Source: an uncultured Candidatus Saccharibacteria bacterium
GTDB lineage: Bacteria > Patescibacteriota > Minisyncoccia > Sungbacterales > HO2-52-23
DNA: 64,000 nt
Reading direction: 5' to 3'
NCBI GenBank assembly: GCA_964585475.1
Contig: CAZPDF010000004.1
Location: 23,169 to 87,168, forward strand
Each line of letters starts with the position of its first letter. Within the stretch, counting starts at the first letter, position 1. This document shows, piece by piece, positions 116-19,748 of the stretch. The notes beneath the pieces were generated by a model. That model was not told where the DNA came from. It did not search any database and worked only from the letters and a program-made list of their open reading frames with translations. The translations under genes and the position numbers were made by a program.

Positions 116-161
116 ACTCATGCCAAGAGCAAATTTTACATCGGGTTTTACGTAAAGGCGA

Positions 162-1406: not shown

Positions 1407-1426
1407 AGCTTATATTTTAGTATATC

Positions 1427-4450: not shown

Positions 4451-4639
4451 ATGTATAATTGGTCTACCGATGAAAAGGAACTAAAAAAATATCCGGAAGA
4501 CTACAAAATATGGCGGCTTGAACAGCTGGCCAATTTCGGGCTTAACGGAGAAAAAATAAAGTTAGAGGATTTAAAAAAATATTGGGATAAAATAAAAATT
4601 GATCCGGCGCGCAGAAAATTTCTAAACGCAATTTTATGA
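4451..4639 (+). CDS. small hypothetical protein, possible cognate partner/antitoxin of the downstream AbiEii-like gene
   Basis: 62 aa ORF; stop overlaps downstream start (ATGA); charged, no recognisable domain. Confidence 0.3.
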   Translation: MYNWSTDEKELKKYPEDYKIWRLEQLANFGLNGEKIKLEDLKKYWDKIKIDPARRKFLNAIL

Positions 4640-5298
4640 ATATCGAGGTCCTAAGCCAATTGCAGAAAGATTTTCTTGAAAAAATTGGGCGAACCCCTTA
4701 TTTAAGAGACAATTTCTATCTTACCGGAGGCACCGCTCTTGCCGCTTTTTATTTAAAGCACCGTTATTCGGAGGATTTGGATTTTTTCAGCGAAAAGGAA
4801 GTTGATATGATCAATCTTAATGTGTCGGTGGCCAAGCTTAAAACATTTCCCGGAGTAGTTAAGACGGATTTTGAGCAAAGTTATAACCGAAATTTGATCT
4901 TTTTTCATTTCAAAGAAGTCGTTCTGAAAACCGAATTCACTTTTTTCCCTTTCCCAAGAATTGAAAAAGGGGAGGCGCAATACGGGCTCTATATTGATAG
5001 CCTTTTGGATATTGCCGTAAATAAGCTTTTTACGATTTACCAAAGAAGCGCTGCGAGAGATTATATTGATTTATATTTTATATGTAAAGATGATAAATTT
5101 GAAATTGCCGATTTAATTAAAAAAGCTAAAATAAAATTTGACTGGCACGTCGACCCTTTACAGTTAGGGACGCAATTTATTAAGTCGGCCGAAGCGAAAG
5201 ATTATCCCAGAATGATAATTGATATCAAACCGGAAGAATGGCAAAATTTTTTCCTGAAAAAGGCAAAAGAGTTAAGATCAGAGGTTTTAGAATTTTAA
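4636..5298 (+). CDS. nucleotidyltransferase, AbiEii/AbiGii toxin family (DUF1814-like)
   Basis: 220 aa; N-terminal YLTGGTALAAFYLKHRYSEDLDFF resembles AbiEii-family NTase signature. Confidence 0.65.
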   Translation: MNIEVLSQLQKDFLEKIGRTPYLRDNFYLTGGTALAAFYLKHRYSEDLDFFSEKEVDMINLNVSVAKLKTFPGVVKTDFEQSYNRNLIFFHFKEVVLKTEFTFFPFPRIEKGEAQYGLYIDSLLDIAVNKLFTIYQRSAARDYIDLYFICKDDKFEIADLIKKAKIKFDWHVDPLQLGTQFIKSAEAKDYPRMIIDIKPEEWQNFFLKKAKELRSEVLEF

Positions 5299-5400
5299 CA
5301 GTGCTGCATCAAAAACTTCGCAGTATGCAGAGTCGGTAGGGAATACGCCAAAAAGCCGCATGTGTATGCGGCTTTTTGAACAATTAATTATAGGTGGCGG

Positions 5401-6474
5401 CTAGATTTTTCCGGAAAATTTTAGAAGCAGAGTCAAAATCTTTGCTTGCCAATTGAAAAAGATTAACGCCACCATAAACAATATCAGTAGCGATGCGTAT
5501 GCCGCATGCAGGAGATGCTGTTTTCTTACCTCAACCGCTACGGCAAGCAGGAATGAGGCGGAAACAACCGCTCCAAGCAGGAAATAAAGCATCCCGAGGA
5601 TCTTCCCGGGCGAGACAATAAGCCGTTCAATGAAAGAGGCATATCGCAAGACGGGCAAAGGAGAAACTAGCGGAGAAATCTCATTTTCAGCGCTCTCCAG
5701 AACTTTCATCACGATAAGCGATTCGTCTTCATAAACTTTTTTAATACCCTCCTTGAGATTCACGTTCACCCCGTTACTGCTTGCAGTAACGGGGCCCACC
5801 GCCTCTCCCGCAACCCGCAACTCTTCCGCCCCATTCGCTTTAGCTGGAATGGTCTCAACCACAGTTTTTGCCAACTCCGGAAGAGGATCCGCCGTTGTTT
5901 GGACAAAGGGAAGAAACGGATGGCCAAACATCTGGACCACAAATAATGTCTCTTTTCCCTGGTAATTACCTCGCGCAGCCGCAATGCCAATTTCGGTGAA
6001 TTTATAGCCCAAAATGTTTGCACGATGTCTAGGAGAATTGAGCCATGCCTTGTTCACCGCTCCGGAGTCCACGAAATCCACCGCCAGATTCTCCCCTGCC
6101 GCGGAAAATAGATATCCGGCCTCGCCAAACCAATGCCACGGCGTAAGGCCGTCCGGGCTAGTATGGGAGAAATATCCGTTTTTAGCCATGTCTTCTGCTT
6201 TGAGCAGGGCCGCTTTTTCAAGAAGCGAATTTATTTTAAGCGGCGCAAGACCGTTTTCCTCTCTGCTTTCATTTGTAAAATCAACCAAAACCCGAGGAAG
6301 AATCGCGGCGGTTAGATCCAACCGGCTCAAGAGAACGGACTGAAAACTCGTTCCGATAAGGAGCAGGACAGCAACAATTGAAAGCCGGAAAATGCTTGCC
6401 CTTCTTAGTAAATGCGGCTGGTATTCATTTGCTTCATGCGGAATAAAATATTTTCGCAGAATTCTCTTGTTCAT
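5401..6474 (-). CDS. CAP/SCP (PR-1-like) domain protein, membrane anchored
   Basis: 357 aa; N-terminal TM; CAP-like region NGYFSHTSPDG..GENLA....AWLNSPRHRANIL; C-terminal TM helices. Confidence 0.6.
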   Translation of the reverse strand: MNKRILRKYFIPHEANEYQPHLLRRASIFRLSIVAVLLLIGTSFQSVLLSRLDLTAAILPRVLVDFTNESREENGLAPLKINSLLEKAALLKAEDMAKNGYFSHTSPDGLTPWHWFGEAGYLFSAAGENLAVDFVDSGAVNKAWLNSPRHRANILGYKFTEIGIAAARGNYQGKETLFVVQMFGHPFLPFVQTTADPLPELAKTVVETIPAKANGAEELRVAGEAVGPVTASSNGVNVNLKEGIKKVYEDESLIVMKVLESAENEISPLVSPLPVLRYASFIERLIVSPGKILGMLYFLLGAVVSASFLLAVAVEVRKQHLLHAAYASLLILFMVALIFFNWQAKILTLLLKFSGKI

Positions 6475-6667
6475 TTTTTTATAATTATAGCATAAATTTA
6501 CCTGCCCGCCATAAGCCTGTCCTGTTAAGTTAAGATGGGGTTGGAAACTTCGTGAAGCATTAAAAGTTATCTTGGTTTCTGTGCAGGCCTAGGACAGGCA
6601 GGGACAAAAACAATACCCCTCCGATTATAATCGGAGGGGTATTGTGGTAAAATCAGCATTTGACTAC

Positions 6668-9600
6668 TTAATTCGGTGAAGCAATGAGTGCCGCAAGTTC
6701 AGCTTCAAGTTCCGCAAGTCTTTTACGGATGAGGTCAATGAGTTTCAATTTTAATTCTGCAATCTTTACACGGATTTCTTGAATCAATTCCTCGCGACTC
6801 GCTGTAACACCCAACACCTGTCCGGATGAAGCGGGAGGAACAAATAAGGCTGTCCCGTCAGGCATATATAATGCCGTCCCTGATATAATCCCGCCGCCGC
6901 CTCCGCCACCACCGCCTCCACCGCCGCCTCCTCCTGAAGACGGCGCAGGTGTCGTAAAGGATTGCTCGCCGCCAACTGATTCCGGTGATGCCGAGGAGAT
7001 AGTGCGATAGAAGTAAGTGGTGCCCGCAGCAAGACCGCTCACGGAAACGCTGTGGTCCGTTACCTTCGGATCCTCGTCCAACGTCGCCGTGGAATTCGCG
7101 TACCCGTAGTTCGGCGCGGAATCAAGTACGGGGTGCGAAACGGTGTCGTAAATCACGCGACTCGTGCCCGGGAAATCCGTTGTCCACTGAATGGTCACCG
7201 ATGTTTGCTCCGCTTCTGTCGCCACCTCTTCGCTGATAACGAGCACTCGTTGATGATTGCCGAAATCAAGCGGATGATCATTTGCATCCGTATTCACATT
7301 TTGGCCACTTATTTCAATTTCAACAAATACATCAAAGAATGAGGCGCGATTGAGATCGGGAGAACTGTCAATGCGGTAAGTAATGTCAAAAAATGAATCT
7401 ACGACTGGGGCGGGATTGGTCGCGTTCCATCCATCGCTATTTCCCTCGAAAACTTTATATTCACCCGACTGTGTAACGGGCAGAGAATACGAACCATTTG
7501 CTCCGGTGAGTGACAAGGCAATAATTTCAATCGGAATCATTTCTTGTCCTTCTCTTTGCGGCATCACCTGTCCAAGCGCTATCGGCCATTCGGCAAGTCC
7601 GGGCTCACCTTCATCCCACACGCCATCATCATTAAGATCGTTCCATTTGTGTCCGGTAATAACCGGGTAATGGAAGTTTCCGAAGTTCAGCGGATTATTG
7701 CTGAGATCAGTCGTGATCGTTCGTCCTAATCTCGGTTGAAGCTCAACGAATACATCAAAGAATGAGTCAACAACCAATGGCGGTTGCTCTGGCAAACCAA
7801 TACGATAAGTAATGTCAAAAAATGAATCTACGACTGGGGCGGGATTGGTCGCGTTCCATCCATCGCTATTTCCCTCATATACTTTGTATTCGCCGGATTC
7901 TGTTACCGGAAGAACGAATTTTCCATCGGATCCGGTAAGCGAGAGTGCTACGATTTCGATGGGGACCTGTCCGTCTTCGTTTGCGGGCCCTGTTACCAGA
8001 CCGAGCGCTACATTCCAACCTGGGAGCGCTGGCTCTTCTTTATCCCATTCGCCATCGCCATCCAAATCTTCCCATTTGTAACCAACCAGTTCAGTGCTCG
8101 TGTCGGTATTCGTAAATGTACAGGTTACGGTATCGCCTTCTTCAACCGTCACCGTCTTGCCGTTTGGCGGTTCCGCAAATCCAACTGATTCATTGTCATA
8201 CTCACAAGAAATATCGGAAAGCTCCCAACCCTCCGGCACGGTTTCTGTAATCGTGTAATCTCCTACAGCGACATCAAGGGTTCGCTCGTCGCCTCCGGAA
8301 AGAGCGAAATCTTCATGATCCGTTAATGAGAAATTAAATGATTCTCCCGCATCGTCGGGGTTCGTTATTTTGCGGACAACAATATGCCCGCCGTTAAATC
8401 GGTTGTAAAGATACGTCTCCGTATCCCCCCTATCGTCGAAAAAATTTGTACCAAACCACACCAGCACCTGTCCCAAATCCCGGTTGACTACCCTTTCATA
8501 GTATCCGTCCACGTTTTCAAGCCGCCACCCCCCTCTTTCCTCTTCGTCAATGATGTGCCATTCGTCAGGAGATTGTAGAATCTCGGAGGAAAATACCGCC
8601 GCGCCGCGGAAATTGCTTGCTTCATCACTACTGGTTTCCTTACATTCTACTATTTCTCCCGTCGTAAAAGTATTTTCGCCATCTTCATCAAGCAGAGAAT
8701 CCCCATTTTCGTCAAGAACCGGCACCGCTTCATAGAGACAGACATCCCAGCCCGGGATAACATTTCCCGTATCGTCGTCATACTTATACACCACTACAAA
8801 TGACCGCCTATTGCCGAACAGAACTTCCTCGTTTTCTCCCGGACTTAGCTCAACCCCTTGCGAGGTCTCGGTCGTCGATATCCAGCCCTGCGGAGCTTCG
8901 CCTTCTGTACCTTCTCTAACGTCATACTCGCCCGCAGGAAGACCTGTCCATTCGACTATTCCGTTCGGGTCGGTATTTTTACACTGACCCTCCCAACCCT
9001 CGGGAAAGAAAAATGAAAACAAATTATCCAAAAAACGGTCTGCGAGATCATCGGGGTAAAGGCAAATGTTTATATTCTCCACCCCCGGCTCGCCGTCGTC
9101 CCACGCGCCATCGCCATCCTGATCGTTAAATTTCTGAACCGTAATCGTGCCAAACTTCGGGGTATTGCCGAAATCAAATGATTCGGTGCCGTTAATAACT
9201 TCTCCATTTTCAACGGTGACTTCCCACCCCCACGGAGCATAATCTTCATTTTCATCGCACTCTACTGCGCCTGACGTATTCTCGGTCGGGTAAGTTTGCG
9301 TCCAGTTTACTTCCGCCGTTTCACAAACGATAAAAGTGCCGTTTGAAAGATCGCTAAATTCATACGCATAATCCTCCCCGTTCGTATTCGCGGAATCTTC
9401 CTCGTCGCCATTCTCGTCAACTAACGAGATCTCCCAACCCGCGATACCCTGGTCGCCATCATCCCTCGCGCCGCCGTTGCCATTGACATCATAGAACTTG
9501 TAACCGGAGATTGTGTCGTGCGCTTCACCGTTTTCGTGCTGGTCCGCCAGTACAAAATTATTAGAAAATAAAACGGCGCCGAAAACAGCGACTGTTATAA

Positions 9601-9760
9601 ATAAACTTGTAGCAATCAGGTGCTTCGGTCGCCAATGAGTAATCCTACAAAGATAAAAATCGATTGAACGAGATGTATTGTTACGTTTAAAATGAGATAA
9701 ATTTATGATTCTATTACTGCCGGAACCCGCTATTACATCAGAAATGATTTTCCTGCTCAT
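6668..9760 (-). CDS. large cell-surface protein with SdrD-B/Cna-B-like Ca-binding repeats, FN3-like region, (Gly)16 tract and C-terminal coiled coil
   Basis: 1030 aa; N-terminal TM/signal; repeated Y/HKW.DL..DG.WD..EPG..GW motifs; two near-identical segments (..NSDGWNATNPAPVVDSFFDITYRI..); GGGGGGGGGGGGGGGG; LKLKLIDLIRKRLAELEAELAAL tail. Confidence 0.6.
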   Translation of the reverse strand: MSRKIISDVIAGSGSNRIINLSHFKRNNTSRSIDFYLCRITHWRPKHLIATSLFITVAVFGAVLFSNNFVLADQHENGEAHDTISGYKFYDVNGNGGARDDGDQGIAGWEISLVDENGDEEDSANTNGEDYAYEFSDLSNGTFIVCETAEVNWTQTYPTENTSGAVECDENEDYAPWGWEVTVENGEVINGTESFDFGNTPKFGTITVQKFNDQDGDGAWDDGEPGVENINICLYPDDLADRFLDNLFSFFFPEGWEGQCKNTDPNGIVEWTGLPAGEYDVREGTEGEAPQGWISTTETSQGVELSPGENEEVLFGNRRSFVVVYKYDDDTGNVIPGWDVCLYEAVPVLDENGDSLLDEDGENTFTTGEIVECKETSSDEASNFRGAAVFSSEILQSPDEWHIIDEEERGGWRLENVDGYYERVVNRDLGQVLVWFGTNFFDDRGDTETYLYNRFNGGHIVVRKITNPDDAGESFNFSLTDHEDFALSGGDERTLDVAVGDYTITETVPEGWELSDISCEYDNESVGFAEPPNGKTVTVEEGDTVTCTFTNTDTSTELVGYKWEDLDGDGEWDKEEPALPGWNVALGLVTGPANEDGQVPIEIVALSLTGSDGKFVLPVTESGEYKVYEGNSDGWNATNPAPVVDSFFDITYRIGLPEQPPLVVDSFFDVFVELQPRLGRTITTDLSNNPLNFGNFHYPVITGHKWNDLNDDGVWDEGEPGLAEWPIALGQVMPQREGQEMIPIEIIALSLTGANGSYSLPVTQSGEYKVFEGNSDGWNATNPAPVVDSFFDITYRIDSSPDLNRASFFDVFVEIEISGQNVNTDANDHPLDFGNHQRVLVISEEVATEAEQTSVTIQWTTDFPGTSRVIYDTVSHPVLDSAPNYGYANSTATLDEDPKVTDHSVSVSGLAAGTTYFYRTISSASPESVGGEQSFTTPAPSSGGGGGGGGGGGGGGGIISGTALYMPDGTALFVPPASSGQVLGVTASREELIQEIRVKIAELKLKLIDLIRKRLAELEAELAALIASPN
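7321..7880. repeat. intragenic tandem duplication (~430 bp period) inside the 1030-aa surface protein gene
   Basis: ~85 bp identical blocks starting near 7365 and 7794 (antisense ORFs 7383 and 7812 begin with the same 22 residues); flanking sequence diverged. Confidence 0.6.
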
Positions 9761-9899
9761 TAATTCGCGTTCCCCATTAAAACTGCCAAATTATTGAAGA
9801 AATAAGGCAATTTCTAAAAAAACGTCTAAATAAACATTATATTTGAGATAAGTTATGACACTTTCCCCATTTTAGCATAATAAAATAATTATGTCAAGG

Positions 9900-10990
9900 G
9901 CATGTCGTGGTTCAATAGCTTGGAATACCCCTCTGGTAAGATATGGGTATGCCATACACATCAAATCCGCGTATAGAGCGCGTCCGCATGGAAGCGGTGC
10001 GCATGGTTCAAAAAGGACATAGTACTCCGGAGGTTGCCCGTCATTTCGGGTATTCACAAAGCGCGATTGTAAAATGGGTAGGACGCGCCCGCTATCTTCC
10101 TCAAAACGCGCACCTCATTCCAACCAGGTCCTCGCGTCCGCACCATCATCCGAATGAGCTGTCATCCTATCTTGTGTCCGAGATTCTCCGGTACAGGGCA
10201 GAACGAAATCAATGCGCAGAGATTCTGTATCATCGGCTTCTGACTGACGGACTTCGGGTAAGCCTTTCCTCGGTAAAGCGGGTGCTGAAACGATTCGGGT
10301 GCAGCCGGTATTCTCAATGGAAGAAGTGGCACCAGTATCCTCCACGGCCGCTTCCGGAAATGCCCGGTATTCTCGTAGAAATTGATTCGGTGCATGAAGG
10401 ACCGCCGCAAGACAGAGTAAGCGCGTTTGCCCTCATTGACGTGCATTCCCGCTGGGGATATGCGGAGCCGACATGGAGGGCGACGAGTCGGGCTGCGGCG
10501 CGGTTCGTATCTCATGCCAAAGGAACTGCTCCATTCCCATTTCGCACTATTCAAACAGACCACGGTTCAGAATTTTCAAAGTGGTTTACCAAAGTAGTTG
10601 AACACCATGGCGTTTCTCATCGACATTCAAGAGTACGCACACCCACTGACAATGCCCATGTGGAAAGGTTTATTCAGACGTTGCAGAAAGAATGCCTGCA
10701 CCGGATACCTAAGAACTTCCGTGCTTGGCAGAAAGAAATCCCTGAATTCCTGAATTACTACAACACCGAGAGGCCGCATATGTCATTGCAGTATCAAACT
10801 CCGTTACAATACTTAAAAACTATTCCAAGCTATTGATTAGAGAACAGGGCATCACAGAGAAGGTAAACCGTACAATGATTAAGAGCCCATGGAAGACTAA
10901 ATACTAATTTTACCCAAGACGCGCGGATAGGTCAACTGTGCGCTTTAGATCACCCCGGGAGTACCAGATTTTGTCACATATTGCTTAACA
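9900..10990 (+). mobile_element. putative IS481-family insertion sequence (ends not resolved)
   Basis: Transposase ORF with short non-coding flanks; I could not find convincing terminal inverted repeats, so boundaries are approximate. Confidence 0.35.
9943..10836 (+). CDS. IS481-family transposase (DDE/rve integrase core)
   Basis: 297 aa; N-terminal HTH (HSTPEVARHFGYSQSAIVKW), rve-like core IQTDHGSEF.. and downstream conserved E; GC-richer than flanks. Confidence 0.8.
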   Translation: MGMPYTSNPRIERVRMEAVRMVQKGHSTPEVARHFGYSQSAIVKWVGRARYLPQNAHLIPTRSSRPHHHPNELSSYLVSEILRYRAERNQCAEILYHRLLTDGLRVSLSSVKRVLKRFGCSRYSQWKKWHQYPPRPLPEMPGILVEIDSVHEGPPQDRVSAFALIDVHSRWGYAEPTWRATSRAAARFVSHAKGTAPFPFRTIQTDHGSEFSKWFTKVVEHHGVSHRHSRVRTPTDNAHVERFIQTLQKECLHRIPKNFRAWQKEIPEFLNYYNTERPHMSLQYQTPLQYLKTIPSY

Positions 10991-11045
10991 CTATATTTTA
11001 TAATACGCTGATCTTGGATGATCTTTCCAAAACGAAGGGGCAGAC

Positions 11046-11417
11046 ATGAATCAAGAAAATACCGAATATCTATTCAAGAATTTTCCTTTTTTCCATCCCG
11101 AAACTCCGTTGACGGAATCTCTCATGGCATTCGGGTTTGAGTGCGGAGATGGTTGGTTTATCCTAATCAAAGAGCTATGCGAAAAGCTGAAGGCCCTAAA
11201 GCTCAAAGATTTTAGGGTGGTCCAGGTTAAAGAAAAATACGGGGGGCTCCGTTTCTATACCGGTTCAATTGAAACCAAAAAGGCCGACGAAGTATTCCGC
11301 CTCATAGAAGAAGCCGGGGGAAAAAGTTATACTATTTGTGAAGCATGCGGCCAACCGGGCCAACCGAATGAAGATGGTTGGATAGCAACTCTCTGTGAAA
11401 GTTGTAGAAAAAAATAA
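11046..11417 (+). CDS. small hypothetical protein with C-terminal CxxC...CxxC zinc-ribbon
   Basis: 123 aa; CEACG...CESCRKK; SD-like AAGGGG upstream; followed by strong terminator. Confidence 0.5.
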   Translation: MNQENTEYLFKNFPFFHPETPLTESLMAFGFECGDGWFILIKELCEKLKALKLKDFRVVQVKEKYGGLRFYTGSIETKKADEVFRLIEEAGGKSYTICEACGQPGQPNEDGWIATLCESCRKK

Positions 11418-11418
11418 C

Positions 11419-11440
11419 AGGCCACCGGGTGGCCTTTTTT
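11419..11440 (+). terminator. rho-independent terminator
   Basis: AGGCCACC/GGTGGCCT perfect hairpin followed by TTTTTT. Confidence 0.6.
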
Positions 11441-11473
11441 CTTACCACGCGGGTTCGGGCCATAACCGCTAAA

Positions 11474-11502
11474 TTGACAAAATACTTGTATGGCTGTATA
11501 AT
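11474..11502 (+). promoter_or_regulatory. sigma70-like promoter (TTGACA-17 nt-TATAAT)
   Basis: Consensus -35 TTGACA at 11474-11479 and consensus -10 TATAAT at 11497-11502 with 17 nt spacer, upstream of the 11585 CDS. Confidence 0.5.
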
Positions 11503-11584
11503 ATCCGGGACACACCGCTACGTTTGAAGTAGCGGCTGTGGGATGTTCTCTACAAAATCTCACTTGAGAAAGGGGGTGTACCCG

Positions 11585-13003
11585 ATGCTCTGGACCGTAG
11601 TATTTTCGGTTGTATCTGTTGCCGCGGCCGGCCTTCTCATCAAATTCCTGCTTGACCGATCAAGCCATCCGGCCGAGATCACGTGGCAGGAATTCGGCAT
11701 CGGCTTAGCCGTTGCCACGATCGTCATCTCCCCGCTGGTCGGCTGGGCAGGTTTCCGAGTGGCGCGTTCCAACAACGTCACCTTCACCGAATACTGGAAC
11801 GGTTGGGAACTTGAGGCAGTGAAGCAAGATATTTCCTGCACGCGTGACGGCTCCTGTAGCCGTACTTACGACTGCGATCCCTACCTCGTTCCGGTGTTCT
11901 ACCCATGCAACTGCGACGACAAGGGCAACTGCAGTACCTGCATGACGCTAGAAACCCGTTATCACTCTTGCCCCTACGCCACGGTGGAGTCAACCTATAC
12001 CATCCAGACGACGCTCGGCGACTACGAAATAGACGCTCACCGCTTTCCAGAAAACGCCCAGTCCCATCGCTGGCGCAAGTCCGTAGCAATCCCGCCGGGG
12101 CTTATCAGCCGGGTTGGCGAAGGCGCGCCGCCATTCTGGAGCGAGGCCAAAATCAGGATCGAGAGAAACGCTCCAGGTCCGGTTAGCACACGGAAGGACT
12201 ATGAGAACTATATTCTCGCGTCCGACCGCACGATCCTCAAGCAGTACTCAAGCGACATCGAGCGGCTCCGGCAGGCAAACCTCCTCCCGCCAATCGCATC
12301 CAGCATCCTCGATTTCTACCTTGCCGACAAAGTGGCATTTGTTGGATACAGGCCGGAGGATCCTGTTGCCTGGCAACGAGCGCTCCGCTACCTAAACGCC
12401 GCCCTCGGCTCCGAACTTCAAGGCGATCTCCATCTCGTGATCGTCGGCGATCCTTCTGCCAACCAGAATCCAGACGTTTATGCTCTGGCCCTCCGGGCAT
12501 ACTGGCAGAACCGCTCGGTCTTCGAGAAAAACTGCCTTGCCAAAAACGGCATAGTCGTAGTCGTTGGCACCGCCGACAACAAAACCACGTCCTGGGCGCG
12601 GGCCTTCACCGGCATGCCAATGGGAAATGAGGCGCTAACGGTTGCCATCCGAAATGAACTCAAGGCACAGCCGCTTACGCCCGAGCGCATCTTAGGAGGG
12701 GTGCGCGGAGAGTTTCGTTTAAGCAACGGCAAAAAGGATGTACAAGGACTCCACGGGAAAGGCGCAATCGAGCGCATCCTCTGGGGCCTTGATGAACCCG
12801 CCACAAAGTTTACCCGTATCAGCATGCGGGCGGACGATCCCGGCGGAGTCGGAAGCGGATATCTCTATCTCTTGGGAGAGGTAGAGCTCACCTCCAAGCA
12901 ACTGGCCGCCATCGCCTTTCTCGAATTTCTGGCATCGCTCGGCGTATGGCTTGCCGCGGCGCTCATCGGAGAACGCCGCAAACGCTCCCGGGCAGGAAAC
13001 TGA
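11585..13003 (+). CDS. hypothetical multi-pass membrane protein with Cys-rich extracytoplasmic segment
   Basis: ORF open from 11543; AAGGGGG SD 8 nt before ATG 11585 (MLWTVVFSVV..); TM helices at both ends; CTRDGSCSRTYDCDPY..CNCDDKGNCSTC cluster; high GC. Confidence 0.5.
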   Translation: MLWTVVFSVVSVAAAGLLIKFLLDRSSHPAEITWQEFGIGLAVATIVISPLVGWAGFRVARSNNVTFTEYWNGWELEAVKQDISCTRDGSCSRTYDCDPYLVPVFYPCNCDDKGNCSTCMTLETRYHSCPYATVESTYTIQTTLGDYEIDAHRFPENAQSHRWRKSVAIPPGLISRVGEGAPPFWSEAKIRIERNAPGPVSTRKDYENYILASDRTILKQYSSDIERLRQANLLPPIASSILDFYLADKVAFVGYRPEDPVAWQRALRYLNAALGSELQGDLHLVIVGDPSANQNPDVYALALRAYWQNRSVFEKNCLAKNGIVVVVGTADNKTTSWARAFTGMPMGNEALTVAIRNELKAQPLTPERILGGVRGEFRLSNGKKDVQGLHGKGAIERILWGLDEPATKFTRISMRADDPGGVGSGYLYLLGEVELTSKQLAAIAFLEFLASLGVWLAAALIGERRKRSRAGN

Positions 13004-13052
13004 TTCAGTCGCCTGCAGTTAACGCTTCGGGTCCTTGAAAGGAGAGTTCGCC

Positions 13053-13688
13053 GTGAAGAAGAATCTCATCATCGCTCTCGTGGTAATCATGGCTCTGGTC
13101 GTAGCCAGTTTCAGTTTATACGGCTACCTCAACGGCCTCCGCACGGAGTCGGTTCACCAGGAGACGGCGCTGAACGCCCAGTACCTGGCGAACCAGAACT
13201 ACCTCTCGGCTTTCCTCTCCGGCTTCTATGAGCAGCTCGGCATCGCGAAGTACAAGTCCGAGAAGCTCAACGAGATCATCACGGACTACGTGAAGGGACG
13301 CAGCTTCGCCCAAGGCGGCAAGTCGGAACGAGCCGGGTTCATCAACGTAGTCGTCGAGGCGGTTCCCAACATCGGGAAGCTAGATATCCTCGACAAGATG
13401 ATGGACTACGTTGCCGCCCAACGCGAGGGGTATCGCGCCGCGCAGGACAAACAGCTCGACATGCTCCGCCACTACGATGACTGGCGCCAGGACGGCTACG
13501 TGCAGTCCTTCGTGGTCGCCAAGATCATAGGAGTCCCGACAAGGCGCCTCCAAGCCAGTATCGGCATCGAGTTGACGCGCGGGGCGGAAGCGCGGGAGCA
13601 GATGTACCGCATCGTCCTCGCCTCCCAAGCACGTGATGCCTATCGGACAGGCACCATGGAGCCGCTGAACGTCCCGACGAAACCCTAG
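13053..13688 (+). CDS. hypothetical membrane-anchored protein
   Basis: ORF-track start 13035 is a TTG; AAAGGAGAG SD precedes GTG 13053 (VKKNLIIALVVIMALVV..); single N-terminal TM; high GC. Confidence 0.45.
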   Translation: MKKNLIIALVVIMALVVASFSLYGYLNGLRTESVHQETALNAQYLANQNYLSAFLSGFYEQLGIAKYKSEKLNEIITDYVKGRSFAQGGKSERAGFINVVVEAVPNIGKLDILDKMMDYVAAQREGYRAAQDKQLDMLRHYDDWRQDGYVQSFVVAKIIGVPTRRLQASIGIELTRGAEAREQMYRIVLASQARDAYRTGTMEPLNVPTKP

Positions 13689-13709
13689 TCATCAGGTCCG
13701 AAACAACTT

Positions 13710-13747
13710 GAGCCGCCGTGCGCAATGCCGGCGGCTCGTTTATTTTT
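13710..13747 (+). terminator. rho-independent terminator
   Basis: GAGCCGCCG...CGGCGGCTC hairpin followed by GTTTATTTTT. Confidence 0.5.
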
Positions 13748-13908
13748 ATGTAAATTAAATTGCCTTTGAACTAGTTTAGAACCTATCTCAAAAATTCCAA
13801 AAAGTAGTTCCTGAGCTTGTCGAAGGATTACTTTTTGGCTTACTCATGGGGTATGCCTTCGACAAGCTCAGGCAATAATTGAACTTTGAGATGACCTCTA
13901 ATCTGATT

Positions 13909-14802
13909 CTAATCAAAAATAGATACAAGATACTTATCAATTTCGCGCTGCTCAAGATCGTAGAAAAATTTACCCTCATTATGCAATTTCTCTGCCAAAC
14001 TTCTCCCGACAAATCTCCAATGCCACGGCTCAAATCGGTAATAGGCGTTATTTTTCGGATACGAGAGTATAAAACCATATTTATACGCCTCCGCCGCAAG
14101 CCATTGAAAGGTCTGCGTTTTTTCAAAAGCTGAAAAATTAGCTCCCAATTTCGCAGTTGTAAAATCCACGGTCGTGCCTAGCTGATGTTCGGAATACCCC
14201 TGATCCGCCGAAAATTTATTTGCAGTGCCCGCCCCGTAAACCACGGTGTAGGATGATTTTAATTCGGACTGCGTTCCGAACGATCGGTATGCTGAAATTA
14301 TTCGGATATCAACATTGCTTGAAGTTGCGACATCCAATAAAATTTTTAAGAAAGGCTCGATACCCCCGTGCATTAGCATCTCCTTTTTGGGGTCAAAAGT
14401 ATATTTTGGATCAATCGGCGTAAGTTTGGGCGGAATGTAATGCTCGTTAAGAAAATATACTTTTGAATATTTTTGCAGGAGTTGCGGGTCCGTTTTGCTA
14501 AGTTTAACCAGCGTCCCGACGTTGCCCGCGATGTCTTTGACCTGTGCTGCGAAAGTGTCCACCCTGTATTTCTCGTCCAGAAGTTGAAGTTCAAGGGTCT
14601 CCCTCGCTTTTTTGGTACTCGCAAGCTCCTGCCGTAGAAACCCAACCGCCTTTTGGTTGCTCTCGAGGAACTCTTTCTCAAGCGACAATCCATACTGCGT
14701 GAAGAGATAATAATGATATCCTAAAATCGAAAAGCCGCCCATACATAATATAAGGATGGACAGAATCAAGCGCATTCTTATATGTATACGTGGCGCTTTC
14801 AT
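13909..14802 (-). CDS. D-Ala-D-Ala carboxypeptidase, VanY/M15B peptidase family
   Basis: 297 aa; N-terminal TM; SAYRSF..Q; SEHQLGTTVDF; FEPWHWRFVG motifs typical of VanY/M15B. Confidence 0.7.
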   Translation of the reverse strand: MKAPRIHIRMRLILSILILCMGGFSILGYHYYLFTQYGLSLEKEFLESNQKAVGFLRQELASTKKARETLELQLLDEKYRVDTFAAQVKDIAGNVGTLVKLSKTDPQLLQKYSKVYFLNEHYIPPKLTPIDPKYTFDPKKEMLMHGGIEPFLKILLDVATSSNVDIRIISAYRSFGTQSELKSSYTVVYGAGTANKFSADQGYSEHQLGTTVDFTTAKLGANFSAFEKTQTFQWLAAEAYKYGFILSYPKNNAYYRFEPWHWRFVGRSLAEKLHNEGKFFYDLEQREIDKYLVSIFD

Positions 14803-15029
14803 GTCGTGAAATTCTCGATTTCAAGCACTTTCAACCGAGATGTAGATCCGGATAAAATCCGCATCGCCGATTTTGGGACGCCAAAATACTCGCTAACCGC
14901 TTCCAACACCGCCATATTTGCCCTTCCCTCCCTAGGCGGTTCTTTAACCCATATCTCCAAATGCGTGCCGTCAACTTTTTTAATTTTCCGTTCTCTTGCG
15001 CCGGGTTTTACCTTAATGAAGAGTTTCAT
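14799..15029 (-). CDS. DUF167 / YggU-family small protein
   Basis: 76 aa; KVKPGA...EGRANMAVLEAVSEYFGVPKS..RILSGSTSRLKVL matches YggU pattern. Confidence 0.6.
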   Translation of the reverse strand: MKLFIKVKPGARERKIKKVDGTHLEIWVKEPPREGRANMAVLEAVSEYFGVPKSAMRILSGSTSRLKVLEIENFTT

Positions 15030-15092
15030 AGACCCCTAATAAAATCATGTTAGCATGGACACAAAAAAATCTTAAATCGAAATCAAACTGAT

Positions 15093-15118
15093 AAAAAATA
15101 GCACAAGCCGTGCTATTT
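15093..15118 (-). terminator. rho-independent terminator (hairpin AAAAATAGCAC..GTGCTATTT)
   Basis: 10-bp stem flanked by A- and T-tracts downstream of the 15152-16369 gene; same stem sequence recurs at 18186-18212. Confidence 0.5.
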
Positions 15119-15151
15119 GATCAATACCACGTTTAGCTACTCCATATCTCC

Positions 15152-16369
15152 CTAATTCATCTTTCGTATGACGGAGAGCGCCGTATCGTGGAGCATTTTT
15201 GATACGTTGCTTAGCATCTCAAGAGTTTGCCGCTGCTGCTGAAGCTTATTTTGAAGGTCAATATTCGCAAGCTGGGCGTCGTCCCCGACACTGCTTAATT
15301 TAACCTGTGTCTGCATGGTTTGTTTAACGCCTTCAGTCCCTTTTTCAACGCTCTTCTGAATATCGGGTACGCTTAGGGGGTTCTTGAATAAGAAGCGAAA
15401 CCAGGGGTATTTAACCTTAACCCTTGATTCCGAATCAACTTCTATACGCGCGGTAAGCGATGAATTGAATATACCAAGAAACTTTGCCGGCATCCTATAA
15501 TTCAACCGCACCCCTTCCTCGCCTATGACGACTGATTCCGCATTCTCGTCTTGCAGGAGCACTCCGCGGGCGAAATTTTCAAGATCCTGTGAGGATTTGG
15601 CTTGAGCGTGCTCCTTTATGCTTTCGAGGAACTCCTTTTTCTTTTCCGGATCCCAACCGCGCACCTCAACCGATTTAACTTGAATGATTGTGCTCAGACG
15701 CGGCTCAAAATTTTTCAAATTATCCTCGCTCTCGCCCCCGGGCGCAATAATGCCGCCGCCGGTTGACCCTCCGGTGGCAGGGGGCACGCAAATCCATTTG
15801 CCGTCTCGGCATTCGGGAGTATTCGGAACTTCGCAGGCCGGCGCTATGTTGCCGGGGCAGGCCGCTCCGCGCGCCGCTCCGCCCGCGCCGCATGAGCGAA
15901 TACAGGCCTCATATCCTGCCGAACCACTGCCGCCATATTGATCCCGGCACCTCGCTTGGCATGCCGCTAAGGTAGACACCGCTGGCTCCAGTTCTCGCGC
16001 CGTTTCACCTCCGCTGGTTTCTGTGGTACCGGAAACCGGAGCCCGCCGTATAAAATCCAGATTGGATTGGTTATTTTGATAAATAGAATCTGCTTCGTTA
16101 GCAGGCGTAGGCGCCCATTGGATAACTCTGTTGGATTCTTTGCCGCAGGCCCAGTGGTCTCCGCCGATAGGATTGCACATCATCGTATAACCGGACGGGC
16201 AGGAAAGAGCGGGCTTGGGCTGAGAGTCGCAATTTGTCCTAAGATCGGCCGTGTTTACGTACGATTTGACCGCCTCCGCCTGAAATTCCATGGTGTCCAG
16301 AGTTTGTCCGAAAACCGGATATACTGCAGCGGCAAGAAGAATAAACGTTATAATGCAAGTATTTTTCAT
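15152..16369 (-). CDS. secreted Cys-rich hypothetical protein
   Basis: 405 aa; signal peptide MKNTCIITFILLAAAVYPVFGQ; many Cys in N-terminal half; Gly-rich linker; no recognisable domain. Confidence 0.5.
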   Translation of the reverse strand: MKNTCIITFILLAAAVYPVFGQTLDTMEFQAEAVKSYVNTADLRTNCDSQPKPALSCPSGYTMMCNPIGGDHWACGKESNRVIQWAPTPANEADSIYQNNQSNLDFIRRAPVSGTTETSGGETARELEPAVSTLAACQARCRDQYGGSGSAGYEACIRSCGAGGAARGAACPGNIAPACEVPNTPECRDGKWICVPPATGGSTGGGIIAPGGESEDNLKNFEPRLSTIIQVKSVEVRGWDPEKKKEFLESIKEHAQAKSSQDLENFARGVLLQDENAESVVIGEEGVRLNYRMPAKFLGIFNSSLTARIEVDSESRVKVKYPWFRFLFKNPLSVPDIQKSVEKGTEGVKQTMQTQVKLSSVGDDAQLANIDLQNKLQQQRQTLEMLSNVSKMLHDTALSVIRKMN

Positions 16370-16448
16370 AAATTGAATGTAGACGAATTATCCATACTCA
16401 ACTATATACTTAAAACGTCAATAAGTAAACTTATTTTACAACATACCA

Positions 16449-16473
16449 ACATTCTCAAGTTTGTAAGGATGTT
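16449..16473. promoter_or_regulatory. operator-like motif copy 2 (ACATTCTCAAGTTTGTAAGGATGTT)
   Basis: 25/25 identical to 16786-16810; lies in promoter region of the 15152-16369 gene, immediately 3' of the ArsR-like gene. Confidence 0.4.
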
Positions 16474-16474
16474 G

Positions 16475-16759
16475 TTATATACGTTGGAATGATTTAAGAA
16501 AGCTGACAAATGTTTTGCCGTATGGCGAAAGAGTGTGCTCCACGAATTTACCGCGGTATTTTTTATTGATAAGCCCAGCCTGATAGAGGCGTCTCGTATG
16601 CTCGCCCAAGGTTTTCTCATTTGCCTCTAGCGCCTTGACGATATCCTCAAGGGTTATGCCCTCGCTCTCCGCAATCAAAAGCAATATCTCAATGCGGTAA
16701 TGATTTGCCATACCCTTGAGGTGCCGCTCCATTTGTTTTGCCGTCTTCACTTTCCCCAT
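16475..16759 (-). CDS. ArsR/SmtB-family winged-helix transcriptional regulator
   Basis: ORF opens at a GTG (16774); first ATG at 16759 gives MGKVKTAKQMERHLKGMANHYRIEILLL...GEHTRRLYQAGLI, an ArsR-like HTH. Confidence 0.65.
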   Translation of the reverse strand: MGKVKTAKQMERHLKGMANHYRIEILLLIAESEGITLEDIVKALEANEKTLGEHTRRLYQAGLINKKYRGKFVEHTLSPYGKTFVSFLKSFQRI

Positions 16760-16778
16760 ATTTACATTATGCACATAA

Positions 16779-16810
16779 CATCCTTACATTCTCAAGTTTG
16801 TAAGGATGTT
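16779..16810. promoter_or_regulatory. palindromic operator-like site (CATCCTTACA-N10-TGTAAGGATG) upstream of the ArsR-like gene
   Basis: Perfect 10-bp inverted arms at 16779-16788 and 16799-16808; 20 bp upstream of regulator ATG; overlaps 3' end of the PCD gene. Confidence 0.4.
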
Positions 16811-17128
16811 TATTTTGGCGGCTAAGATAAAGTCATTCTCAGAGAGGCCGCCGATAGCATGAGTCCAGGATTCGAGCACCACGCAATTGTAGAAAATGTG
16901 GAAATCCGGATGATGCCCTTCCTCCTCTGCCAATTCCGCGACTTTACCCACAAAGACAATTGCTTCTTTAAAACTTTTAAATTTAAATTCTCTTTTTATC
17001 TTTTTCCCATCCTCCATAATCTCCCAGCCGGGGGTTTCTTTGAGATAGTCCCCTGCCTGCATTTTGTTCAGAGGCGGAACTCCGCCCTCACAAGGAACGC
17101 ATTTTTTTTGGATAAGACCGTGGCCCAT
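16784..17128 (-). CDS. pterin-4a-carbinolamine dehydratase (PCD/DCoH family)
   Basis: Internal ATG at 17128 gives 114 aa; EEEGHHPDFHIFYNCVVLESWTH matches the PCD signature; the longer 188-aa N-extension is low-complexity and unlikely. Confidence 0.7.
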   Translation of the reverse strand: MGHGLIQKKCVPCEGGVPPLNKMQAGDYLKETPGWEIMEDGKKIKREFKFKSFKEAIVFVGKVAELAEEEGHHPDFHIFYNCVVLESWTHAIGGLSENDFILAAKINILTNLRM

Positions 17129-17129
17129 A

Positions 17130-17558
17130 ATGCTTGATCTTAGATTGAATACACCTGAATTATGCACTAAAACATTGACAGGACAAGGCGGATTTACAGA
17201 CAAGATATATAGTGGTATACTGAATGAAATAAGAACTACTATGGAAGGCAGAAGAGAAAAAATTGAACCGGTTATGGAAGGAAAGGTTGCAAAAATGCGA
17301 ATTCCTGATGCCGACATGCAGGGCTGGATTGAGTCACTGCGCGAAGGCAACTTGGATGATAGGGAAATTGACGAAATCCTCTCTCATCTGAATCCTACAT
17401 ATAAAGAGCAAAACTTTTCTCCGCGCATGAAAGAGTCGCTCAAGGAATTCGTAACCCTGATCGAAGAATCAGCCGGCAGAAAACTTACTCCCGAGGAGCG
17501 GACCAAAATTGTAGAAAAGCTAAAATCGTCCTGGCACCAGTCCACCCAGGAACACTGA
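17130..17558 (+). CDS. hypothetical protein (start uncertain; alternative ATG at 17241)
   Basis: Acidic ORF (..MEGRREKIEPVMEGKVAKMRIPDADMQGWIESLREGNLDDREIDEIL..); no domain recognised. Confidence 0.3.
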   Translation: MLDLRLNTPELCTKTLTGQGGFTDKIYSGILNEIRTTMEGRREKIEPVMEGKVAKMRIPDADMQGWIESLREGNLDDREIDEILSHLNPTYKEQNFSPRMKESLKEFVTLIEESAGRKLTPEERTKIVEKLKSSWHQSTQEH

Positions 17559-17714
17559 ACGACCATTTTCTTTATTTTTCCGATTAAAAAGCATGGCTTG
17601 AGCGACGCTTTTTTTCAGCTCCGGCGGCAGGATTTTCGCTGTATAAAAAATACCGCAGGCGCTGGACCGTGCGATTTGATTTTGCCGATAAAACTCTCTT
17701 TGTTAATAATGGTA

Positions 17715-18155
17715 TTATCTTTGTTGCTCCTTCTGAATGTACTCGGGCCGCATATCCGAAGCATCAACAGTGAGTTTTGAAATATGATTTATTTTTCCCC
17801 ACTGAATTTTGATTTGCCCTGGATCAAACCCTTTTTCTTTCAAAACTTGCAGTAAGTGATGCCGCTGGTTTTCTGTATAAGCAACTAGGCCTTCTGAAGC
17901 ATTCGCCCACACGTGACTACCGCAGATGAAAACTTGTATATCTCCACGGTTGTCAAACTCTTTCAAAGCGGCATCAAGGAATTCAGTTAGTATAGGATCA
18001 CGTGTATTCTGTAAATGAGCAGGAAAGCAAGGACTTTTGTCTAATCTGTAGCAAGCAACCGCGATGCATGAATCTAGCCAACCTGAAGTTATCTTCTCTA
18101 GTCCTTCTATACGATCGTAACGATTCACCCCAACCTGGATTAAGGATTGAACCAT
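17715..18155 (-). CDS. hypothetical protein
   Basis: 146 aa; no confident domain (weak CheD-like GWLDSCIAVACY). Confidence 0.35.
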   Translation of the reverse strand: MVQSLIQVGVNRYDRIEGLEKITSGWLDSCIAVACYRLDKSPCFPAHLQNTRDPILTEFLDAALKEFDNRGDIQVFICGSHVWANASEGLVAYTENQRHHLLQVLKEKGFDPGQIKIQWGKINHISKLTVDASDMRPEYIQKEQQR

Positions 18156-18185
18156 TTGTGGCTCCAGACTTAATTAAGACTAAAC

Positions 18186-18212
18186 CAAAAATAGCACGAG
18201 GTGTGCTATTTT
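18186..18212 (-). terminator. rho-independent terminator (AAAAATAGCAC..GTGCTATTTT)
   Basis: 10-bp stem with T-tract on minus strand directly downstream of the tRNA pair. Confidence 0.5.
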
Positions 18213-18220
18213 GTCAAAAA

Positions 18221-18281
18221 CTCCCCGGGTAGGGATCGAACCTACGACCGTCGCCTTAACAGGGCGCCGCTCTTCCGGGGC
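18221..18281 (-). pseudogene. tRNA-Asn(GTT)-like, 61 nt, lacks D-arm (probable tRNA pseudogene or fragment)
   Basis: Acceptor GCCCCGG/CCGGGGA, anticodon loop CTGTTAA, T-arm GGTTCGATCCC present; ~11 nt of D-stem/D-loop absent relative to the neighbouring tRNA-Asn. Confidence 0.45.
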
Positions 18282-18302
18282 AACTTTCGTTTCGATTCAA
18301 AC

Positions 18303-18374
18303 CTCCGGCGGCAGGATTCGAACCTGCGACCATCTCCTTAACAGGGAGCCGCTCTACCGCTGAGCTACGCCGGA
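18303..18374 (-). tRNA. tRNA-Asn (anticodon GTT)
   Basis: Manual fold: acceptor TCCGGCG/CGCCGGA; D-arm TAGCTCAGCGGTAGAGC; anticodon loop CTGTTAA; T-arm GCAGGTTCGAATCCTGC; no encoded CCA. Confidence 0.8.
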
Positions 18375-18470
18375 GGTTTGAATCGGGATTTATGTTGTCG
18401 CCCGCGAAACGATTAACAATCGTTTCGCCCACTTCGCTACCGGGGAATATTCAATATTTTACTTCAAAAT

Positions 18471-19748
18471 TTAATATCCTTCAAGTTTCTTTGAATGATC
18501 ATGCAGGCGGATGCGCTCAAGGGACTTGGCCTCAATCTGACGGATCCGCTCACGGGTTACGCCAAATTCCCGACCTACTTCCTCAAGAGTATGCGTTATG
18601 CCGTCATCAAGACCAAAACGCATGGCAAGAATTTTTTGCTCTCTGGGGGTAAGCTCCTTGATTATTCCAAGAAGTTGATCTTTCAAGAGCCGCCGCGAGG
18701 CAACCTGCGAAGGCGAAAGGGTTTTATCGTCCACGATAAATTCGCCGAGAACCGAATCCTCGTCATCCCCTTCCCCAACCGGCGCCTCAAGCGACACCGT
18801 GTCCTGCTCAATCCGTTCAAGATGATGCACTTTTTCAACTTCGATATTCATTTCGGCCGCAATCTCCTCCGGCAAGGGCTCGCGACCCAAATCCTGTAGC
18901 AACCTGCGCTTCACCTGCTGGAATTTGGAGATGGTCTCCACCATATGCACCGGAATGCGGATTGTCCGCGCCTGATCCGCCAGGGCCCGCGTAATCGCCT
19001 GTCTGATCCACCAGGTGGCGTAAGTTGAAAATTTATAACCCCGGCGGTAATCAAACTTCTCAACCGCTTTAAAAAGGCCGAGATTCCCCTCCTGGATCAG
19101 ATCAAGAAGAGTTAAATGCGTGGAGCGGCCAACATAACGCTTGGCAATGGAAACCACCAGGCGGAGATTGGCTTGCGTAAGCTTCTTTCGCGCCTCCTCG
19201 TCTCCCTTCTCGATGCGTCTGGCAAGTTCTTTCTCCTCGTCCCCGGTAAGAAGTGGGATGCGGCCGATCTCGCGAAGATACATCTGTACCGAATCCTGCG
19301 ACAATTGATCAAAGTCTATTGCCTCCTCTTTTTTCCGGCGCTTGGCCGTAACCACGGTTTCTTCCTTCTTTTTATCCTCATCTATAAACTCCTTTGTTTC
19401 AAGAATCTCGATATTTTCCCGCTCAAACCGCGCGTAGAGATCCTCAAGGAGTAAAATATCCTCCTCGATCGTCGGGAAATAATAAAGGATCTCGGCGTAA
19501 GTTACAAAACCGCGCTCTCTCCCCCGCTTAAGAAGTGCGTTGATTTTATGCTCTACCTCAATGGCGCCCGCCTTTTTGGGCAGCTCTGATTCCATAATCT
19601 TTTTCCGGGCGGCCTGAAATTTGGTAAGTTTGCGCACGAATTTTGTGCGATTTTTTACGACCGGCTTTTTTTTAAAACTGAATCTACGCATGATTTTATC
19701 CCGCCCTCTCCACGAGGTATTATACCTCGTAGAGAGAAACGTTGCCAT
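18471..19748 (-). CDS. rpoD: RNA polymerase primary sigma factor
   Basis: 425 aa; regions 2-4 conserved ([40 protein letters not shown]...). Confidence 0.9.

Follow-up and report, generated by a model that had tools for sequence, protein, structure and literature searches.

An IS481-like insertion sequence, a zinc-ribbon gene and a putative LemA-like/TPM-like membrane operon as three independent units in a Candidatus Saccharibacteria contig

The stretch studied here, called the window throughout, comprises 64,000 nucleotides of contig CAZPDF010000004.1 (positions 23,169 to 87,168; assembly GCA_964585475.1) from an uncultured Candidatus Saccharibacteria bacterium. By the taxonomy of its best homologues the host is Parcubacteria-like, within the candidate phyla radiation. 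Between about 9.9 and 13.75 kb it carries an insertion sequence (IS) with a transposase gene, a gene for a small zinc-ribbon protein and an operon of two genes for membrane proteins. An earlier reading of the bare letters, the sequence-only reading, had regarded this interval as a single cassette, probably acquired horizontally from a donor of higher guanine plus cytosine (GC) content. According to our analysis the interval consists of three independent units, namely the IS, the lone zinc-ribbon gene and the two-gene operon, with the following features:

9869..9897, minus strand: sigma70-type promoter (TTGACA at 9897-9892, 17-nt spacer with TG, TAAAAT at 9874-9869; 11/12, extended -10)
9898..9902, no strand: left target-site duplication GGGCA, 5/5 identical to the right copy
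9903..10846, plus strand: IS481-like insertion sequence, 944 bp, TGT…ACA termini, ends taken from comparison with 93 metagenome contigs
9943..10836, plus strand: DDE transposase of 297 amino acids, N-terminal helix-turn-helix (HTH) and rve/rve_3 core
10847..10851, no strand: right target-site duplication GGGCA, 5/5 identical to the left copy
11046..11417, plus strand: stand-alone zinc-ribbon gene, 123 amino acids (…VKEKYGGLRFY…, CEACG…CESC), composition host-like
11419..11435, plus strand: intrinsic terminator of the zinc-ribbon gene (7-bp stem with 5 GC pairs, T-run; ΔG -11.1 kcal/mol)
11474..11502, plus strand: consensus sigma70 promoter of the operon (TTGACA-17-TATAAT, 12/12)
11503..11584, plus strand: 5' leader of about 82 nt (7-bp hairpin at 11515-11535, strong Shine-Dalgarno sequence GGGGG; ΔG -31.4 kcal/mol, z -2.7)
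11585..13003, plus strand: large partner, 472 amino acids from ATG 11585 (a longer reading, 11543-13003, gives 486 amino acids)
13035..13688, plus strand: small partner, 217 amino acids from TTG 13035 (211 if from GTG 13053)
13710..13748, plus strand: intrinsic terminator of the operon (stem-loop at 13710-13737, then GUUUAUUUUUAU; ΔG -22.9 kcal/mol, z -3.1)

The window as a whole has a GC content of about 47% in a 1-kb composition profile and is not AT-rich, contrary to what had been supposed. At 300-nt resolution the transposase region has 48-53% GC and the zinc-ribbon gene 41-46% (43% over the whole gene), and values of 55-63% are confined to 11.5-13.75 kb. The GC-rich stretch that had been drawn from 9.9 to 13.7 kb therefore shrinks to the operon. 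The same follows from GC at third codon positions (GC3), for which the 36 other genes of the window give a background of 0.488±0.055:

transposase gene: GC3 0.493, z +0.1
zinc-ribbon gene: GC3 0.419, z -1.2
large operon gene: GC3 0.674, z +3.4
small operon gene: GC3 0.821, z +6.0

At codon positions 1 and 2 the GC content of these genes is near normal. The GC-rich block has exactly the limits of one transcription unit, from promoter to terminator. The compositional deviation that had been noticed is thus real for the two operon genes, and the transposase and zinc-ribbon genes are host-like. Treated as a genomic island the interval fails, as deviant composition is found only in the two operon genes and the target-site duplication encloses the IS alone. 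At the borders of the operon we found no integrase, tRNA or flanking repeats (the nearest tRNA genes are at least 4.5 kb away), the window holds no second copy of the IS, and an Rfam scan of the window returned only tRNAs. Furthermore, about 95 other loci bearing the operon's gene pair were searched for the zinc-ribbon protein and the transposase, and neither was found, except in two contigs of the same organism. The three units are therefore chance neighbours. The proposal of a single acquired cassette, or of cargo carried by the IS, is not supported: the IS has its own inverted repeats with a 5-bp duplication directly at its ends, it resembles the host in codon composition, as does the zinc-ribbon gene, and both are missing from all other loci bearing the pair.

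At either end of the IS there is an imperfect terminal inverted repeat of about 26 bp (9903-9927; 10821-10846), within which a perfect 16-mer is found (9912-9927; 10821-10836). Its left end reads TGTCGTGG… from 9903, its right end …GAGAACA up to 10846, and the stop codon of the transposase falls within the right inverted repeat. The left end, TGTCGTGGTTCAATAGC, appears to resemble the inverted repeat of IS481. The transposase matches the Pfam profiles rve, rve_3 and HTH_23, and the best NCBIfam model of all IS families is IS481 (NF033577, E 1.4e-55), with 188.8 bits compared to 96.9 for IS3. The score stays below the curated cut-off of 224, and the element is called IS481-like here. Members of this family have terminal inverted repeats starting with TGT and produce a short target-site duplication. 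The element in the window has such TGT…ACA termini, directly flanked by a short duplication, and a single rve transposase with an N-terminal HTH; it differs from the family in the score under the NCBI cut-off and in its short length of 944 bp, and its lineage differs in a strict preference for position and orientation (GTCAA plus 5/6 bp, see below). Delimitation by inverted repeats and target duplication, which had been proposed as a check, was thus successful. Because the termini and the GGGCA duplication enclose only the transposase gene, the IS is a complete simple insertion with its own gene only and no cargo.

Two further assemblies cover the locus independently, and each is broken off at the right IS end or no more than one base from it: contig L005 (MEGAHIT, k=139) begins at window position 10709, 138 nt short of the right end, and contig L004 (Logan, k=31 graph) begins at 10818, 29 nt inside the right end. 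Such breaks are the pattern expected of a repeated or polymorphic element. The left-end 21-mer is present in 93 metagenome contigs, often at contig ends and with 73 distinct left flanks, which marks the lineage as multi-copy and mobile. Perfect duplications of 5-6 bp border 8/26 of the metagenome copies in which both ends are present, and the remaining ones may reflect chimeric assembly or recombination across a multi-copy repeat. A search of the JGI metagenome contigs for the predicted empty site, TATGTCAAGGGCATCACAGAGAAGG, gave no match, and no record of the exact transposase sequence was found among the encoding contigs.

The signals of the operon agree with what had been read from the letters. 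The promoter matches the consensus at 12/12 positions, and the terminator after the small gene is well defined, with 0/200 shuffles equally stable. Most homologues from Parcubacteria have a TTGAC[AT] box, accompanied by a -10-like element, 60-95 nt before their start, and a promoter score of at least 10/12 is reached by 24% of the regions upstream of large genes, compared to 8% among the remaining upstream regions (p=0.004). In the leader of the window (11545-11584) and in those of L023, L028, L015, L019, L020, L008, L017 and L089 a CCUU(G/U)A-type stretch is located 15-30 nt before the Shine-Dalgarno sequence. In minimum-energy folds it pairs with the Shine-Dalgarno sequence in 8/12 leaders. 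A recurrent hairpin of this kind was nevertheless rejected, as the energies are no better than those of shuffled sequences.

The large protein had been described as a polytopic, Cys-rich protein of 486 amino acids. The open reading frame, the membrane helices and the Cys cluster are all there, but the start is more likely ATG 11585, judging from the GGGGG ribosome-binding site, from position 1 of the homologue alignment and from the form found in public collections; this gives 472 residues. In the AlphaFold model (predicted local distance difference test, pLDDT, 89.7) two N-terminal transmembrane helices are followed by a β-stalk, α/β domains, a C-terminal transmembrane helix (residues 437-461) and a basic tail. 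The stalk is an antiparallel sheet of five long strands (residues 66-154) with 8 Cys in the connecting loops. C85, C91, C97 and C129 are invariant in 47 homologues (alignment A1). Hits of the stalk to MS-ring and pore-toxin structures in Foldseek were rejected because of their low probability and a root mean square deviation above 12 Å.

At about residues 250-400 the model shows an α/β domain of the TPM type, and a transmembrane helix follows it. Searching the PDB with Foldseek gave a single high-probability match, 2kpt, which we take to be a TPM-domain structure (probability 0.85, template modelling score on the target, TMt, 0.45). Among viral models the best matches were a protein of Agrobacterium phage Atu_ph07 (E 1.4e-23, TMt 0.75) and the phage "TPM domain-containing protein" A0A8S5UGF4 (E 6.6e-14, probability 1.00, TMt 0.58). 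On the sequence level the large protein matches the phage family phrog_2087 (E 1.7e-22), and its homologue in phage Aeh1 approaches the Pfam profile TPM_phosphatase (PF04536; E 0.0051, 17.2 bits, cut-off 22.1). In the model the large protein thus crosses the membrane with three helices and contains an α/β domain which structurally matches TPM-domain proteins. The basic tail after the last helix would place the C-terminus in the cytoplasm, and a body of about 375 residues, with the invariant cysteines, would therefore lie on the outer face of the membrane. There the cysteines would fit either disulfides or a metal site. Elsewhere in the window a 715-residue protein (46546-48693) contains a DsbD-type transmembrane domain, which is consistent with extracytoplasmic thiol-disulfide chemistry.

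The small protein was correctly recognized as membrane-anchored: its model (pLDDT 85) consists of an N-terminal anchor and a helical bundle. It matches the phage family phrog_1383 (E 1.5e-15), to which the phage small partners belong with E values of 1e-63 to 1e-77. The same profile is matched by two canonical LemA proteins, one from the window (1.5e-22) and one from the Yanofskybacteria locus L022 (1.7e-18), and all these matches cover nearly the full profile length. The top PDB sequence hit of the small-protein profile A2 is the LemA structure 2ETD (E 0.068), including the E-x-YP-[DN]-L motif. Because phrog_1383 also recognizes canonical LemA proteins, we place the small protein, on the basis of such sequence profiles, as a divergent member of the LemA superfamily. 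The genome therefore holds both a divergent LemA-like protein and a canonical LemA (23020-23580, minus strand, Pfam LemA E 3.1e-61), whose gene is located upstream of an M48 peptidase gene (21833-22753, minus strand).

Several results weigh against these two assignments. The Pfam profile TPM matches neither the window protein nor any of 47 large homologues, a comparison of A1 with the canonical TPM protein of L022 by hhalign was negative (0.6% probability), and this canonical protein in turn has no match to phrog_2087. On the small side, Pfam LemA (PF04011) does not match the window protein at E ≤ 0.1 and matches only 2/44 small homologues (best E 0.031), hhalign gives A2 about 20% probability against LemA, and the Foldseek search of the small model against the PDB returned no significant match, with 2ETD not among the 50 matches listed. 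Since the direct hhalign tests are weak or negative, membership rests on intermediate profiles and structure. For the same reason, and because Pfam recognizes neither family, we do not file the operon proteins as members of PF04011 or PF04536. This agrees with the earlier statement that both are membrane proteins without a family, as neither Pfam nor NCBIfam provides an assignment.

The pair is nonetheless well represented. At least 238 homologues of the large protein, with identities of 45-68%, come from cellular genomes, and a profile search of 1.84 billion representatives yielded 625 clusters, 275 of them at E ≤ 1e-30. A locus scan with one genome per species resulted in 80 loci, from Parcubacteria, Microgenomates, WWE3, Saccharibacteria, many Obscuribacterales/Melainabacteria, a few metagenome-assembled genomes of Proteobacteria and Acidobacteriota, and an Aeromicrobium isolate (sp. 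179-A, L077). In nearly all of them the small-type gene directly adjoins the large-type gene, sometimes at a distance of one gene, and it mostly lies downstream (upstream in L091 and L046). Tandem double pairs were observed in Obscuribacterales/Melainabacteria (L033, L039, L043, L044, L047, L048). The genes had been suspected to be accessory, which is in line with the patchy phyletic distribution and the non-syntenic contexts. As to the opposite possibility, that they are conserved core genes in syntenic relatives, the flanking genes differ in every genome examined.

Large and jumbo phages carry the pair as well. By tblastn the large protein was found in 19 phage records, and all seven isolate phages inspected have a gene for 350-395 residues directly followed by one for 182-197 residues. 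The carriers include Aeromonas phage Aeh1 (p307/p306), Burkholderia phage FLC9 (gp160/gp159), the Xanthomonas phages X1, XacN1 and Xoo-sp13, Serratia phage 2050H1, Sinorhizobium phage phiN3 and Agrobacterium phage Atu_ph07. These are the same two families as in the window, phrog_2087 (listed as of unknown function) and phrog_1383, and their genes adjoin each other in the order seen there. With about 350-395 residues the large proteins of the phages are shorter, and they are only 23-27% identical to the window protein. The label "virion structural protein" attached to phrog_1383 could not be traced to an experiment. In addition, seven viral contigs carry relatives at 38-46% identity. One of them, L100 (IMGVR_UViG_3300050034_000187, 89-17237), is a 195-kb phage contig with the pair at 45% identity. 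Near the pair its DNA polymerase gene is interrupted by a homing endonuclease, and three transposase genes of phrog_506 are located there as well.

The operon can best be regarded as an enlarged and divergent paralogue of the LemA-TPM module, which is known from LemA (PF04011; 2ETD) and TPM proteins (PF04536; B. subtilis YdjH, plant TLP18.3, cyanobacterial Psb32). Both systems combine a small anchored helical protein with a larger membrane protein, encoded next to it, in which a transmembrane helix follows a TPM-type α/β domain; phrog_1383 is common to the window small protein and canonical LemA, and the large window protein matches TPM proteins structurally. They differ in that neither window protein has a Pfam-level match, and in gene order, which is usually large then small in the divergent pair and LemA then TPM in the canonical one. 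The large window protein is also about 200 residues longer than a canonical TPM protein, owing to two N-terminal transmembrane helices, the Cys-rich β-stalk and a further α/β domain. Both versions occur together in L022, where at 17674-19073 a canonical LemA gene is immediately followed by a canonical TPM gene (Pfam E 2.5e-43) and the divergent pair lies 8 kb away (10001-12189).

The question remains why the two genes are so rich in GC. Their excess in GC3 is a property of the whole family: over 70 loci the large gene lies above its neighbours in 93% (mean +0.10), the small gene does so in every locus that could be scored (mean +0.18), and GC at positions 1 and 2 is unchanged. The GC3 of the pair tracks that of the host over a range of 0.23 to 0.89 (slopes 0.89-0.97, intercepts +0.10 to +0.23), the small gene exceeds the large one in 56/59 loci (p about 1e-13), and the gain is mainly in C and not in G at the third position. 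In the window the proportion of C at four-fold sites rises from 0.28 in the background to 0.44 in the large and 0.53 in the small gene, and the corresponding values of C/(C+T) at two-fold sites are 0.38, 0.70 and 0.78. In the phages both genes show the GC3 excess in 4/5 scorable loci of the phage collections, three metagenomic viral contigs are mixed, and the excess in overall GC is at most +0.015 in Aeh1, X1 and FLC9. Because the bias follows the host, is strand-specific and is ordered between co-transcribed genes, a single transfer hardly explains it; it fits codon-usage selection as in abundant proteins. Together with the consensus promoter, the C-ending codons would point to high expression and not to a foreign origin, and judging from these signals the operon is probably highly expressed.

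The strongest competitor of this view is a recent transfer of the operon alone, with its own promoter and terminator, from a relative or phage of higher GC, whose genes would not yet have drifted. It would account for the high z values in the window and for the coincidence of the compositional limits with promoter and terminator, and it is compatible with the non-syntenic flanks in all relatives examined and with the presence of the family in phages, including the 195-kb contig. Two further facts favour it and at the same time weigh against selection for expression: the window genes lie 1.3 and 1.9 standard deviations above the family regression (ranks 7 and 3 of 68), and the closest relative, L089, with 66-68% identity, has GC3 values of only 0.476 and 0.551 and thus a small offset. 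Moreover, in the Nealsonbacteria locus L006 the ribosomal-protein genes are not GC3-rich and the pair is slightly so, for which reason simple translational selection is not established. On the other hand, the direction of the bias is the same in nearly all scored loci whatever the GC3 of the host, a higher value in the small gene is not expected of co-transferred genes with equal residence time, and the gain is strand-specific. The operon borders lack the mobility features mentioned above, and the adjacent IS is a separate simple insertion. As the GC3 excess is family-wide, high GC is weak evidence for a recent transfer. The idea of a higher-GC donor is therefore weakened, and some component of recent transfer may be present; as the full explanation we consider it unlikely.

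Taken together, three independent units and a conserved, abundant LemA-like/TPM-like envelope module are the joint explanation which we favour and regard as rather probable. According to this picture the strongly promoted and well-terminated operon encodes a conserved module of two membrane proteins; the body of the large protein and the LemA-like bundle would both lie on the outer face of the membrane, where they may form a complex. By analogy with TPM proteins, the pair would most likely be an abundant module that maintains the envelope or serves as a scaffold there, and this is the reading of its function we prefer. Proposals for TPM proteins include a chaperone-like role when membrane complexes are assembled or repaired, and a role as phosphatases (PMC11237479); this was the only directly relevant source for LemA or TPM function in the literature searched. 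It speaks against our reading that the functions of the LemA and TPM proteins themselves are unsettled.

Alternatively, the pair might process nucleotides or pyridine nucleotides outside the cytoplasm, the large protein being a phosphatase or nucleotidase of the TPM type, held at the membrane with a LemA-like partner, and might feed the salvage of nucleotides and nicotinamide adenine dinucleotide (NAD). A generic-phosphatase hypothesis for TPM is mentioned in the review PMC11237479, which also refers to a paper, as cited there, for ATPase/ADPase activity of a TPM domain. The genetic neighbourhood offers some support: the closest relative L089 (3273-12376) adjoins a complete NAD cluster (NadA, NadB, NadC, NadE, NadK, NrtR, NMNAT), NAD genes lie less than 10 kb from the pair in L012, L020, L030 and L067, in Xanthomonas phage X1 the pair is situated between NAD synthase and NMNAT/NAMPT, and a NatV-like gene is found at a distance of 2.4 kb from it in Aeromonas phage Aeh1 (phage neighbourhoods in L003 3043-8802 and L002 7293-8348). 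However, no more than 5 of about 80 cellular loci show this association, along with 2 of the 7 isolate phages, which is weak support, and there are no NAD genes near the pair in the window. In addition, no catalytic motif could be assigned and the TPM assignment is remote, so that we consider a role in NAD or nucleotide salvage improbable.

The pair might also be mobile cargo, a phage-related module for exclusion or for defence against phages. Such a function, hinted at in the sequence-only reading, is very improbable. In its favour, both proteins are membrane proteins of patchy distribution, large virulent phages have homologues in their accessory or early regions (in Serratia phage 2050H1 beside rIIA), and 6 kb upstream the window contains a gene for an AbiEii toxin. 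On the other hand, PADLOC-DB gave no meaningful match (only HamA for the small protein, E 0.012, 13 bits, and none for the three others), the pair was not found to be linked to the IS or to further mobility genes, some genomes have tandem duplicates or paralogous canonical LemA-TPM pairs, and the consensus promoter and host-tracking codon bias are more in keeping with a resident gene of high expression than with silent cargo.

Next to the envelope module, the IS deserves attention for the site it occupies. The promoter at 9869..9897 on the minus strand reads toward the gene of a 1030-residue SdrD/SpaA-like surface protein (9760-6668), and the IS sits 5 bp upstream of its -35 box, which at the same time is the GTCAA target landmark of the element. 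For the lineage we compared the window (9869-9927) with L104-L196. In 63/73 distinct left flanks of the metagenome contigs a GTCAA ends 5-6 nt from the IS end. This is the complement of TTGAC in a -35 box, and the full TTGACA is present in 40/63 flanks. On the outward strand a TATAAT matching at least 5/6 positions follows at 16-18 nt in 35/63 flanks (56%), compared to 6.7% in shuffled sequences, and an open reading frame of at least 80 codons reads away from the IS in 41/48, with a median start 72 nt from the box. Because copies that are identical over the first 60 nt inside the left end have otherwise unrelated flanks, the GTCAA motif belongs to the target and not to the element.

We propose that the 944-bp element transposed alone, duplicating GGGCA and landing 5 bp upstream of the divergent -35 box, in a position and orientation that are almost universal in its lineage. 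It is a tentative possibility, nearly as likely as not, that this lineage, widespread in groundwater candidate-phyla bacteria, selects its targets by promoter architecture, inserting 5-6 bp upstream of TTGACA with the transposase always divergent. Recognition could be based on nothing more than the GTCAA sequence, insertions between genes being the ones that survive, or on a promoter bound by RNA polymerase/sigma. No report of such promoter targeting by IS481-like elements was found in the literature searched.

The zinc-ribbon gene is a lone unit. Its product with two CxxC motifs, and the terminator of a 7-bp GC-rich hairpin with T-run behind it, are present as described before. The protein has 411 homologues in Patescibacteria and other phyla, none of them with a Pfam family, and homologues also occur in Lak and other megaphages. 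Domain, PHROG, NCBIfam and PADLOC searches gave no structural or functional lead. A 117-residue gene upstream of the pair in L006 was considered as a homologue and rejected, as it is not homologous.

Some further genes of the window may be mentioned. The AbiEii-type toxin gene (4636-5298, Pfam E 1e-18) has the lowest GC content of all window genes (35%, all z <= -2.2) and, as a candidate for recent acquisition, is to be preferred to the IS region. A glycogen/starch cluster (162-4307) comprises an alpha-amylase, a starch-synthase-type glycosyltransferase and a GH57 enzyme with a UVR motif. The 1030-residue surface-type protein with SdrD-B/SpaA repeats (6668-9760) contains a 15-residue Gly run and a C-terminal coiled-coil-like tail, and a very large putative surface-type protein of 1972 residues is encoded at 29274-35192. 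Beside the tRNA-Asn gene Rfam gives a weak tRNA match (18221-18281, 30.6 bits, just over the gathering threshold), which ARAGORN does not call.

High GC beside a transposase is thus, at this locus, no evidence for an island of IS-borne cargo, and with this a false lead is removed. The family-wide excess of C-ending codons calls for caution in inferring horizontal transfer from composition alone. If the targeting of -35 boxes is true, it would represent a bacterial "safe-harbour" strategy comparable to that of promoter-targeted retroelements, and it would be relevant for transposon targeting and for the rewiring of promoters in small genomes. With the gene pair a so far uncharacterised two-gene membrane module is defined, which occurs across Patescibacteria, Obscuribacterales and large phages, with strong promoters and a codon bias that tracks the host. 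If the two proteins do form an abundant envelope complex, it would provide a concrete starting point for work on how the cell surface of candidate-phyla bacteria is built, and also on why large phages carry copies of it.

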